Part shown: one piece after another, positions 3,001-6,000 of the stretch
Layout of the letters: the number at the start of each line of letters is the position of its first letter
Numbering within the stretch: position 1 is the first letter of the stretch
From: Escherichia coli
Lineage (GTDB): Bacteria > Pseudomonadota > Gammaproteobacteria > Enterobacterales > Enterobacteriaceae
Length of the DNA stretch: 64,000 bases
Strand: one strand, 5' to 3'
Assembly: GCF_044324875.1 (NCBI RefSeq)
Contig: NZ_CP172186.1
Position numbers: made by a program

Positions 3001-6000
3001 TGATAACTGTACTTATGTCACCAGGAAGGAATCCAGAGTGATAATTCGCGAACAGTAATGAAATACATGTTATCATTCTTCTGTTGGTGACTTTGCCGAC
3101 TCAGATATATACTATCTGTATGTCGTGCATTATATATTAACGATACGCAGAGGTGTGTATATGGGCAGTGTTACAAAGAAACCGTCACCTGTTGTTATTA
3201 TTAAGAAAAAAAGACGAATTCTTTCTCATCAGGATGATGCCGTACAGGCAGTTCCTGATGATATAAAACCAGCGCCAGTAATGGAATTTAAAACCGACTC
3301 ATTACCTCCTGAAATACCAGCCACAGTGGCCGGTTCCCCGGAACAACAGAAAAAAACAGGACGTAAGAAGAAGAAAAAAAAGAAGAACAATAGATGGAAT
3401 CATGAGTTTATCCGACACAGTCTGGACTGTGTTAAAAAAACATTCCCTCAGTTACGGGCTGAAGAGGGGGGATATCATGCATTTAAAATAGGCATCTCAA
3501 AGGATGTCATGGCTTTTATTTCGTCCAGTCCTGAGTGTGGACTAACTGTAAAAGAATGGAATTGTGCTGTAAGGATGATTACTGGCGGTTACAAATATCT
3601 GCAGCGTATATCAGTCGCAGGTACTCCGCGTTATGGTCTGGATGGCAAAGTTCATGGAACTGTAACGGAGGAAGAAGCGCTGTATGCGCAGGCAAAACTT
3701 GAAAAACACACGCAGCGTTATAACGCCAGGATGAAAGAGACAGAAGATGCTCGTTGCAACCAACCATCGAAAACTGTTACACCGGACAGCAATTTGAAGG
3801 ACGCCTGCATTCATAACGGGGCATAATTATGTGAAATGCTGTCCCGCTATGGAATCAGAATTGAGTAACGACACGAGGTTTTGATGATTACTGTTATTAT
3901 TTCTGAGGTGGATGGCTGGCGTGAATGGAAACACCGCGCCCGAACAAAGGATGCACAGACAGCCATCATCCGGGCTATGAATAAACATTTTCCACGATCT
4001 TACAATTTTATCCCTGATGATATTGATAATGCACCTGTATTATTTGCAGCTGTAACACGTACACCGAACGTGAAAATAACCGGTCATATCTGGAAACCTA
4101 TGTGGAACAGGGGAATTTGCTGGAACGTCAAAGGTCCGCCAGTAATCATCACGCTCATCCAGGGGGCCGCTTGGAATTCGGAAAATAAACCACGTTAAGA
4201 CTATTTGGGGTTCTAAGCCGAAAACCTAGAAAATTCCGTAACCAAAGCCAGTAATTGACAGATTTGCATGACGTTGAATAGGTGACGGGTTATGTGACGA
4301 AATCTGATGCAGAAATCGTTGTTTCAGTGACAGTCACTCAATCGGTCGTTTATGTGACAACCCATGCCGTTACTGGTCGCGGAAAAATCCAGGTTTCGGG
4401 GTTTGAGGCTCAGTGGAACAATAACCGCCGTTAAGCGGTCATTTTAAATAGCCAAAAATCAACCAGCCAATTTACATCGTGAATCTGCGTTCTTGGCTAT
4501 CTGTTTTGGGGGGGGCCAAGTTGGCTTTACTCATCCTGGCCGTTTGCGGAACAAACGACGTTGTTGATCTCAACAGATTGATTTACCTGTTATTGACCAT
4601 TCAATTGAACCGCTTAACCGCCTTTTGAGTTCCACTACTCCCCAAACCCCAAATAGCTGTCTAGCGCGAAAAATCACTGCCCGTAACGTATCATATGGCT
4701 GGTACGAATAAATTCTCACTTACTGCACCATAAACGTACACGTCAAAACCTTCCAAACATGCTTCAAAAATCAACAAATTCGCTGTATCGGAAATTTTGG
4801 CGTTTCCGGCGTACAACCCCGATTAGATATAAATGAATTAACGTGTGTGGTTTATTGGTCTCTGCCTTCTCCAGCAATGACGCAAGACTTTGACATACCA
4901 TCAAAAAAATGATCGGCGAGCTCCAGAATTCGTGGATTATGAGTTGTAATAATAACGGTAGGGCAATGCTGCCGGATATAGGTAATGATCTTTATCGCGA
5001 GTTCTTCGCCAATAGAGGCCGTGGGTTCATCAAGTACGATAATCTTTTTCTTACGGGCTAGGGCGCGGGCTATGCATAATCGCTGGATCTCTCCACCACT
5101 CAAACCACTACCCAGAGGATTAATATCCCGGTCTAGGAAAGCAAGGAAATGTTCTCCGCAGTCCTCTTTAATTAACCCCAATGAATTCAGGATGCAAAAC
5201 AGTTCATCATCGGGAAGAATGTCATCGGTTCCATACAGAATATTATCACGAATAGTTCCCTGCACCAGAACGGCTTTTTGAGGCACAACAGCAACGTCCT
5301 CCAGGATAGACGCACTCAACTCTGTGTTCTTCGGTTCAAGCCCCAACATCCGGGCAAACTGCCGTGTTTCATTAGCCCGGTAGCATGAACCATTATCCGT
5401 CAGCCACTCTACTGGAGACGCCGGAAGCTCGTTGCCGAAGCGGCGTTCCACCGCTCCCAGCATGACGTCCTGTACTGTTTCACTGTTGAAGCCGCCCGTA
5501 GTGACCGCCCAGTGCAGTGCCTCACGGTCACAGCAGTCCAGCGCGAACGTGACTCGCAGTTTTTCTCCGTTATCACAGCGGAACTCGAACCCGTCAGAGC
5601 ACCATCGTTGATTGCTTTCTTTCACGGCCACTTTGCCAGTATGTGCCCGCTTCGATGGCGGTACAGCGGTTTTTCGCTCAAGCAACAGCGCATTCTGGCG
5701 CATGATCCGGTAAACACGTTTGGCATTGATCGCAGGCATACCATCAAGTTCGTCCTGTCTGCGAAGCAGCGCCCATACCCGACGATAACCATACGTGGGC
5801 AGCTCTCCGATAACATGGTGTATACGGAGAAGTACATCCATATTATCGGAGTGACGGCTGCGGCGACCATCTTTCCAGTCATCGGTTCGTCTGAGAATGA
5901 CGTGCAACTGCGCACGCGACACCCGGAGACAACGGCTGACTAAGCTTACTCCCCATTCCCGGGCAATAAGGGCGCGTGCGCTATCCACTTTTTTGCACGC

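Follow-up and report, generated by a model that had tools for sequence, protein, structure and literature searches.

A FopA-like FinO-domain gene beside an IncK2/Z replicon: a probable copy-number regulator whose A-tracts are ordinary mutational hot spots

What does a FinO-domain protein do when its gene stands close to a plasmid replicon, and do the homopolymeric A-tracts within that gene turn it on and off? Both questions are raised by a locus at the start of the 64,000-nucleotide stretch of Escherichia coli DNA analysed here (the window). We propose, with a probability of roughly 0.6, that the gene encodes an RNA chaperone of the FopA/PcnR clade which forms part of the module that maintains an IncK2/Z (I-complex) replicon and which, by analogy with its characterized relatives, would repress copy number via antisense RNA or the repA leader. 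The module would run in the order repA, RelE-type toxin-antitoxin pair, serine acetyltransferase and FopA-like gene, as follows:

1..873, + strand: IncFII-family RepA of an IncK2/Z-type replicon (profile match)
1829-2364, + strand: Phd/YefM-RelE toxin-antitoxin pair
2468-3058, + strand: serine acetyltransferase
3150..3155, + strand: Shine-Dalgarno sequence GAGGTG, 5 nt before the ATG (sequence read directly)
3161..3826, + strand: coding sequence of the 221-aa FopA-like FinO-domain protein (ATG at 3161, TAA at 3824-3826)

The gene follows repA at a distance of 2.3 kb and on the same strand, and its product is identical to WP_000536047.1, which RefSeq names 'ProQ/FINO family protein'. The exact 221-aa protein is found on 145 public contigs. 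An A4/A5 polymorphism at 3770-3773 gives rise to alternative C-terminal tails, with total lengths of 221 aa or 218 aa, and the 218-aa allele, which has the same N-terminus, occurs on at least 1000 contigs. The gene is under purifying selection, with a dN/dS of 0.12 for the whole gene, 0.21 for its N-terminal part and 0.09 for the FinO domain. A consensus promoter scan of the spacer at 3059-3160 returned no site above thresholds; a weak promoter candidate, TTGGTG-N18-TATACT at ~3083-3112, was spotted by eye.

A FinO/ProQ-like C-terminal domain had been recognized by the first-pass annotation, and this assignment holds at the level of both sequence and predicted fold. Residues 87-192 match Pfam PF04352 with 49.4 bits (E=5e-13; cut-off 27), the sole Pfam family matched in the protein, and the best PDB sequence match is the N-terminal domain of ProQ (5nb9, E=2.5e-6). 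In the AlphaFold model residues 81-199 reach a pLDDT of ~97, preceded by ~80 disordered N-terminal residues that carry two basic stretches. The best structural match found by Foldseek is RocC (7rgt; target TM 0.85, rmsd 2.3 A); FinO itself (1dvo) matches with E=1.7e-6 and an rmsd of 2.2 A, and Lpp1663 and NMB1681 are further matches. The features of this part of the protein are:

3401..3757, + strand: FinO/ProQ fold, residues 81-199 (PF04352, AlphaFold, Foldseek)
3596-3598, + strand: Tyr146, conserved pocket residue
3629-3631, + strand: Arg157, conserved pocket residue
3758..3823, + strand: low-confidence C-terminal tail (AlphaFold model, allele comparison)

Tyr146 and Arg157 are the equivalents of the Tyr/Arg pair in the pocket for RNA 3' ends, which is Y70/R80 in ProQ and Y146/R157 in FopA. 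Both residues are invariant in one alignment (A1), and in a second one, of 57 homologues (A2), their conservation is at least 90%.

A word-indexed search for homologues returned only 5 clusters, and an exhaustive search of representatives reached FopA- and PcnR-like relatives. Both are full-length homologues: FopA at 35% identity (range 35-40%; BLASTP E=7e-36, residues 6-187) and PcnR at 31% identity (BLASTP E=2e-28, residues 2-181). By sequence, the protein is a member of the FopA/PcnR clade and neither a canonical FinO nor a ProQ.

The replicon points in the same direction. The RepA of the window is identical to that of pLH50-c-A at 289 of 290 residues. The closest complete plasmids are of the IncK2/Z type with an I-type transfer system, and those that combine the identical protein with a RepA differing at one residue are typed IncK2/Z, MOBP and MPF_I. 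In near-identical plasmids (pLH50-c-A, pCh101) the repA leader matches the Rfam family PK-repZ with 167 bits (E=1.8e-39), and the antisense strand of this leader forms a hairpin of -35.9 kcal/mol (z=-5.4) followed by a U-rich tail. From such ~99% identical plasmids we infer that the Inc/pseudoknot region would lie just upstream of the window. Within the window, an Rfam scan found IS3-type ALIL pseudoknots only, with no FinP and no CopA. Nor were F-type tra genes seen near the gene or elsewhere in the 64 kb, which agrees with its original description as standing outside any tra region. The gene order recalls that of related plasmids, namely repZ, yacAB, (SAT) and fopA in IncI1, and repA followed by pcnR in IncI2.

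How such a protein could act is suggested by its two characterized relatives. FopA binds the antisense RNA Inc and speeds Inc-repZ pairing ~7-fold (PMC7491321), and deletion of pcnR raises copy number ~10-fold, with a stem-loop in the repR leader as the PcnR target, independent of antisense RNA (PMC8053102). The earlier suggestion that the protein could affect antisense-RNA control of the nearby replicon fits these precedents, and by analogy we extend it as follows. The FinO domain would bind the terminator hairpin and U-tail of an Inc-type antisense RNA, a stem-loop of the repA leader, or both, while the disordered lysine-rich N-terminus may make non-specific RNA contacts that accelerate pairing of antisense and target. 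The net result would be lower RepA translation, which would keep both the copy number and the cost of the plasmid low. Since the mechanisms of FopA and PcnR differ, the exact RNA partner here is not predictable from either.

A different possibility is that the main targets of the chaperone lie off the replicon, among the transcripts of the toxin-antitoxin pair and the acetyltransferase, the I-type transfer genes or chromosomal sRNAs. FopA binds chromosomal RNAs as well (PMC7491321), the gene is encoded on the same strand as relBE, the acetyltransferase and a conserved 104-aa ORF, and it is intact in many ColV IncF plasmids in which IS1 separates it from the IncK2/Z repA. We nevertheless consider this unlikely, given that both characterized members of the clade act on replication control and that the position next to rep has been kept in IncI1, IncI2 and IncK2/Z plasmids. 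A further argument comes from the distribution of broken alleles, described below.

The second question concerns the lysine-rich stretches of the protein, which the first-pass annotation had described as encoded by A7-A8 runs. Four such runs, T1 to T4, were located, and they relate to the two basic stretches as follows:

3176..3217, + strand: first basic stretch, residues 6-19 (KKPSPVVIIKKKRR), with the clade-wide motif K-x-PV(I/V)3-KK(K/R)R
3206..3212, + strand: A-tract T1 (A7), codons AAG AAA AAA AGA
3350..3394, + strand: second basic stretch, residues 64-78 (KKTGRKKKKKKKNNR), directly before the FinO domain (alignment)
3350..3356, + strand: A-tract T2 (A7)
3374..3381, + strand: A-tract T3 (A8), the tract most often shifted
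3434..3440, + strand: A-tract T4 (A7), within the first helix of the FinO domain (VKKT)

KKKRR corresponds to residues 15-19, within the first stretch, where P10, V11, K15, K16 and R18 are invariant among FopA, PcnR and the present protein; the motif is also found in distant representatives. In the second stretch, where GRKKKKKKKNNR corresponds to residues 67-78, K69, K72 and K73 recur unchanged in FopA and PcnR, the RKKKKK patch aligns within the clade, and in-frame K6 and K9 variants occur. Judged from these alignments, both basic stretches have been conserved at the protein level in the FopA/PcnR clade. The window contains 19 runs of at least 7 bases, 4 of them inside the 666-bp gene (0.2 expected, Poisson P=5e-5), but this enrichment is accounted for by the protein sequence, that is, by its lysine content: when the lysine codons were permuted, a mean of 3.2 such runs was obtained (4 observed), and the mean longest run was 12.6 (8 observed). 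Moreover, AAG makes up 5 of the 7 codons in the K7 run versus 4 of 21 elsewhere (Fisher P=0.02). The A7-A8 runs are thus a by-product of conserved lysines encoded with the favoured AAA codon.

The A-tracts had been flagged as potential sites of slipped-strand mispairing, to be checked by their length variation, and such variation is present in public assemblies at all four tracts. Every single-tract shift product that we searched for exists: T3 products on 35 contigs (-1) and 4 contigs (+1), T2 products on 9 (-1) and 2 (+1), T4 products on 10 (-1) and 1 (+1), T4 changes being seen at loci L031-L037, and the T1 -1 product on 1 contig. An A8 variant of T1 is found in the pO145 lineage (L012, L044). 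The shifts recur on several haplotypes and plasmid backbones, and the changed tract is often the single indel across 2-6.7 kb of assembly. At five loci (L017-L020, L023) no indel other than the T3 change occurs within 6.7 kb, and at another (L021) none within 3.8 kb, and the T2 change at loci L024-L030 is the only indel besides known allele differences. Sequencing error explains CP061248, CP061251, CP027379, L015 and L016, which carry 8-13 indels each. As the sole cause of the shifts it was rejected, given clean assemblies with one indel over up to 6.7 kb that also contains G8, A7 and T6-T7 runs. Single-tract slippage in this gene is therefore real. Long-read-only assemblies often miscall the gene, as in three noisy PLSDB records, but some of the frameshifts are genuine.

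T3-1 alleles were found in the IS1-separated ColV context in 8 of 10 places, and shifted alleles overall seem over-represented there. Such an excess would follow from the I-complex replicon being the cognate target, and it speaks against main targets elsewhere. In the proposed mechanism, dead alleles would be most visible where IS1 parts the gene from its replicon, as on ColV-type IncF plasmids.

Does this slippage amount to a switch? A contingency locus, in which mispairing at the A7-A8 runs reversibly switches the chaperone and creates subpopulations that differ in copy number or behaviour, was suggested by the first-pass annotation's view of the runs as on/off sites. The presence of four tracts within 235 bp of coding sequence, the existence of all the shift products searched for, their recurrence across haplotypes and backbones, and tract changes as the only indel in clean assemblies are all what such a locus would produce. 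Several observations count against it, and together they make it improbable. Shifted alleles account for at most ~5% of contigs when the 218-aa allele, identical at its N-terminus, is included; a frequency of ~30% OFF (62 versus 145 contigs), which is obtained when only the exact 221-aa allele is used, was discarded in view of the at least 1000 contigs with the 218-aa allele and the similar behaviour of the controls. On the same plasmids, control genes that contain A7/T7 runs show frameshifts of a similar order (cyt b562, shifts on 2 plus 82 contigs versus ~1600 intact; an McbG-like gene, ~13 shifted versus 271 contigs). None of the 3 predicted double-shift alleles that would restore the frame was found in public data, and the pO145 lineage has gathered three tract changes and is still out of frame in two independent records, a pattern of decay. 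Tract length does not exceed what the lysine content would lead one to expect, AAG interrupts the K7 run, and in fopA the corresponding patch is encoded with no A run above 6. Runs of A7-A8 are also short for a classical contingency tract. Programmed phase variation of the gene is therefore not supported, and the A7-A8 runs are ordinary mutational hot spots that sporadically yield dead alleles.

A weaker form of the idea is that the tracts serve as a low-frequency mutational switch, in which recurrent -1 slips, found on many backgrounds, derepress the IncK2/Z replicon or a co-resident one and give rise to high-copy subclones. We give it as little credence as the contingency locus. Were it true, such subclones would be favoured when the dosage of virulence or resistance cargo pays and purged otherwise, and the tracts would be a plasmid-level bet-hedging device rather than a sign of plain decay.

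The second basic stretch also carries a possible site of programmed -1 frameshifting:

3376-3382, + strand: dnaX-like heptamer A_AAA_AAG, in frame and overlapping T3

Frameshifting or slippage here would yield, besides the full-length protein, a 77-aa basic N-terminal peptide (ending in KKKKKKEEQ and a stop). A_AAA_AAG is an efficient shift site in E. coli, as in dnaX; here it stands in the correct frame, the -1 frame ends after 3 codons, and an AGGA lies 13 nt upstream. However, no stable structure was found 5-9 nt downstream of the heptamer, where folding equals that of shuffled sequence (z=-0.5), so that the stimulatory element is missing, and FopA and PcnR lack the heptamer. Its conservation among closer alleles is uninformative because all alleles bearing it are at least 93% identical. 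A dnaX-type programmed frameshift was rejected on these grounds, and we regard production of the short peptide as the least plausible of the readings considered here.

In E. coli of avian and human origin, plasmids of the IncK2/Z and ColV types bear virulence and resistance genes, and the protein would help to set plasmid cost and gene dosage if it represses copy number like FopA and PcnR. A third I-complex lineage, after IncI1 and IncI2, would then be seen to couple a FinO-domain chaperone to a replicon under antisense control, and this third lineage would be one with an IncFII-type RepA.

We finally compared the protein with known systems. Chromosomal ProQ and RocC share the FinO domain with it, but the present gene is plasmid-borne and its basic extension is N-terminal. 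It also lacks the C-terminal Tudor-like domain of ProQ, and it scores 37.7 bits against the NCBIfam ProQ model, whose cut-off is 127. FinO of F-like plasmids (PDB 1dvo) has the same fold and, likewise, a disordered basic extension at its N-terminus that is believed to aid RNA pairing. In the present protein, however, no FinO_N domain was found, and it reaches 34.8 bits against the NCBIfam FinO model (cut-off 136). Its gene does not occupy the distal end of an F-type tra operon, nor was a FinP found in the window. PcnR of IncI2 plasmids (Yang et al., 2021, PMC8053102) is closer: it has an N-terminal PVIVVKKRR-type motif, its gene follows repA on the same strand at ~2-3 kb, and it is a copy-number repressor. 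PcnR has a far weaker second basic patch, and IncI2 lacks a repZ-type pseudoknot (PMC8053102), in contrast to the strong PK-repZ match of the replicon type studied here. FopA (YafB) of the IncI1 plasmid pCol1B9 (Gerovac et al., 2020, PMC7491321) is distant in sequence. Its gene is convergent with its rep, whereas the present gene is co-oriented with repA, whose product belongs to the IncFII/IncZ type. The two proteins also differ in the spacer that joins their basic stretches, the lysine run is longer here (K7, with an extra QQKKT), and it is encoded by A7-A8 runs in place of the shorter runs of fopA. The likeness to FopA is nonetheless extensive. The two proteins are similar in length and share the same architecture, in which an N-terminal region bearing two basic stretches leads into a central FinO domain that is followed by a short tail, with 46-50% identity over the domain and conservation of Tyr146 and Arg157. 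Both genes are plasmid-borne, near an I-complex replicon controlled, in the present case probably, by an Inc-type antisense RNA and a pseudoknot, and both have a RelE-type toxin-antitoxin pair and a serine acetyltransferase in their neighbourhood.

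The first-pass annotation had described a FinO-like gene with lysine stretches and A7-A8 runs, and reading and translating the sequence located each of these elements:

3161-3826, + strand: FinO-like ORF, 221 codons, ATG to TAA
5 nt upstream of the ORF, + strand: Shine-Dalgarno sequence GAGGTG
Residues 15-19: KKKRR
Residues 67-78: lysine-rich stretch GRKKKKKKKNNR
3206-3212, + strand: T1, A7 run
3350-3356, + strand: T2, A7 run
3374-3381, + strand: T3, A8 run
3434-3440, + strand: T4, A7 run

Homopolymer runs of at least 7 bases number 19 in the whole 64-kb window, and 4 lie inside this 666-bp gene, a strong enrichment (4 observed vs 0.2 expected, P=5e-5). 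Just before T4 there is a perfect 8-bp inverted repeat (ACACAGTC/GACTGTGT; window 3416-3433 and 3445-3465), and on the minus strand the T7 complement of T4 comes after a terminator-like hairpin; this arrangement is probably due to chance, because the region folds no more stably than shuffled sequence. Near the 3' end, an A4/A5 length polymorphism at 3770-3773 reframes the last ~20 codons and produces two common tails, of 221 aa (...PSKTVTPDSNLKDACIHNGA) and 218 aa (...PSTNCHTGQQFEGRLHS). Alleles of 214, 205, and 201 aa also occur, and the tail, which is predicted to be disordered, appears to be free of sequence constraint.

The assignment to the FinO/ProQ-like domain is sound. PF04352 (ProQ/FinO) spans residues 87-192 (49.4 bits vs a Pfam cut-off of 27), and a sequence search of the PDB ranks the ProQ N-terminal domain, RocC, and FinO highest. 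In an AlphaFold model based on an alignment of 57 homologues, residues 81-199 have a pLDDT of ~97, and residues 1-80 and 200-221 are of low confidence and lack secondary structure; Foldseek matches this model to RocC (target TM 0.85, rmsd 2.3 A) and also to FinO (1dvo), Lpp1663, and NMB1681. Since the NCBIfam equivalogs ProQ and FinO score far under their cut-offs, and neither FinO_N nor the ProQ C-terminal domain was found in the protein, it is neither FinO nor ProQ proper. Alignments with relatives show that the pocket residues Tyr146 and Arg157 are kept. Purifying selection supports a functional protein: compared with an allele of 95% identity, the window allele gives a dN/dS of 0.12 overall (0.21 for the N-terminal 80 residues and 0.09 for the domain). 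The gene is uncharacterised, and the annotation 'ProQ/FINO family protein' already exists for it.

To survey tract length in public data, we predicted the +/-1 products of each tract and looked up their exact sequences among ~15 billion proteins. The anticipated length variation is present: products of tracts one A shorter were found for T3 (35 contigs), T4 (10 contigs), and T2 (9 contigs), products of tracts one A longer for T3 (4 contigs), T2 (2 contigs), and T4 (1 contig), and the ORF left by T1-1 on 1 contig. Alignment of 24 fetched contigs with shifted tracts against the window showed, for most of them, no indel besides the tract change across 2-6.7 kb holding other long runs (G8, A7, T6); two loci (L015 and L016) are visibly noisy. 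Shifted tracts turn up on several haplotypes as well as on different backbones, namely ColV with IS1, native IncK2/Z, and a lineage with only 93% identity across the aligned region, so the slips are recurrent. The lysine run also has length variants that keep the frame, K6 and K9. In the PLSDB sample, three of the records that seem to be shifted are long-read assemblies full of errors, each with 9-13 indels. Overall, T1-T4 are genuine mutational hot spots. Two independent pO145-type records have T1+1, T3-1, and T4-1 in common, and the gene there is a real, inherited, decayed pseudogene; in these IncFIB pO145-type plasmids (pO145-13516 and NZ_CP124820.1), the triple change aligns to window 3205-3442 and the pseudogene adjoins an IncFII-type regulatory repA2 (copB-like) gene. 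Interruption or truncation is a second route to gene loss in some plasmids: two fetched loci (L027 and L030) carry IS3-type insertions inside the FinO domain, breaking at window ~3592, and in three PLSDB matches (H136-H138) the gene is split into two places.

The first-pass annotation further proposed that slipped-strand mispairing could switch the reading frame on and off, a programmed switch that these data do not support. Shifted forms account for at most ~5% of contigs, because the intact 218-aa allele, with the same N-terminus as the 221-aa allele (at least 1000 contigs), and further intact alleles (863, 408, and 364 contigs) count too; carriers of the 218-aa allele (A5-type loci) yield the same shift products. 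A7/T7 control genes on the same plasmids shift at a frequency of the same order of magnitude: the A7-1 product of cyt b562 is on 2 contigs plus 82 of one clonal allele vs ~1600 intact, and the T7-1 product of a McbG-like gene on ~13 contigs vs 271. The cyt b562 gene (6563-6970, - strand) has its own A7 run at 6683-6689, and its -1 frameshift allele (106 aa, private A11T change, 82 public contigs) has apparently spread clonally as a pseudogene. Of three possible frame-restoring double shifts, none is on record. When Lys codons were permuted within the gene, runs of at least 7 averaged 3.2 (the gene has 4) and the longest run averaged 12.6 (the gene has 8; P(longest run <=8)=0.19); AAG makes up 5 of 7 codons in the K7 run vs 4 of 21 elsewhere (P=0.02). 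This pattern suggests a by-product of coding that has, if anything, been trimmed, and not an evolved slippery device. Programmed -1 frameshifting at T3 is likewise unlikely: T3 holds an in-frame dnaX-type heptamer, A_AAA_AAG, where a -1 shift leads to a stop after EEQ and a 77-aa peptide, and basal slippage at such sites is known in E. coli, but no structure lies downstream (z=-0.5) and the heptamer is not in FopA or PcnR. The phase-variation idea is thus reduced to ordinary homopolymer fragility. An A8 run at 1877-1884, within the Phd/YefM antitoxin gene (1829-2080), showed no length variant in the fetched loci covering it, unlike the A8 of the FinO-like gene.

The window begins at the repA start codon, followed by a Phd/RelE toxin-antitoxin pair, a serine acetyltransferase gene, and the FinO-like gene. 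Its RepA belongs to the IncFII family and is identical at 289 of 290 residues to that of pLH50-c-A; pCh101 has the same RepA as pLH50-c-A and a FinO-like protein identical to the window's. Both plasmids type as IncK2/Z, MOBP, and MPF_I, with pil genes present and F-type tra genes absent. In pLH50-c-A, the 160 nt preceding repA match Rfam PK-repZ (167 bits, E=1.8e-39), a pseudoknot/leader element of I-complex replicons, and the opposite strand folds as a hairpin of -35.9 kcal/mol (z=-5.4) with UUUUCCUUU after it, a predicted Inc-type antisense RNA whose terminator-plus-U-tail shape would be of the kind recognised by FinO domains. In the window backbone, an I-complex Inc/pseudoknot control region appears to precede a RepA protein of the IncFII type. 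Viewed alongside three loci (L001, L042, and L043), the window appears to derive from an IncK2/Z backbone (I-type pil/tra, MOBP) with acquired ColV-plasmid-like cargo, here a tsh-type autotransporter, an iron ABC transporter, and sugar-utilisation genes. Three Rfam ALIL pseudoknots (IS3-family frameshift elements; 17315-17431 and 34625-34741 on the - strand, 47489-47575 on the + strand) mark IS copies dividing these cargo regions. In a chimeric 378-aa ORF (4852-5988, - strand), IS3-family transposase domains (HTH_21, rve) are fused to the C-terminal portion of an ABC-transporter ATPase; the transporter gene was cut short by an IS insertion, and the same junction is kept in ColV plasmids. The FinO-like gene persists in ColV-type IncF plasmids, pAPEC-O2-ColV among them, as a remnant of the module with IS1 just upstream.

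A tblastn search of 72,556 plasmids split the relatives into ~130 near-identical records and ~3,000 records below 60% identity, the latter annotated 'ProQ/FINO family protein'. Among them, IncI1/IncI-gamma relatives (200 aa) lie between yagA and a hypothetical gene, the FopA/YafB position, and an IncI2 relative (198 aa) lies 1.9 kb downstream of repA, the PcnR position. Along its entire length, the window protein aligns with both (IncI1, 35% identity, E=7e-36; IncI2, 31%, E=2e-28), and all three have the motif K-x-P-V-(I/V)3-K-K-(K/R)-R in the N-terminal region and, directly before the domain, a second patch of lysines (RKKKKK). One source gives a cluster member the name 'YafB'. Because motif and patch recur in FopA, PcnR, and distant representatives retrieved when 1.8 billion proteins were searched exhaustively, the oligo-lysine 'linker' is a protein feature conserved across a known clade; FopA encodes the equivalent patch with A runs of at most 6, whereas the window gene has A7-A8, a further point against a programmed switch. 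FopA binds Inc and speeds Inc-repZ pairing about sevenfold (PMC7491321), and PcnR represses repR/repA translation, its loss raising copy number about tenfold (PMC8053102). By homology with these functions, the most probable role of the FinO-like protein would be repression of RepA synthesis, in which the FinO domain may bind an Inc-type RNA or else the leader of repA, while the basic, disordered N-terminal region may help RNA contact and annealing. The earlier suggestion of antisense-RNA control is sound, but published work on the FopA/PcnR clade anticipated both it and the domain call. In IncI1 plasmids, the same kinds of genes sit between repZ and fopA as between repA and the FinO-like gene in the window, and the latter is best regarded as what FopA and PcnR correspond to in IncK2/Z plasmids.
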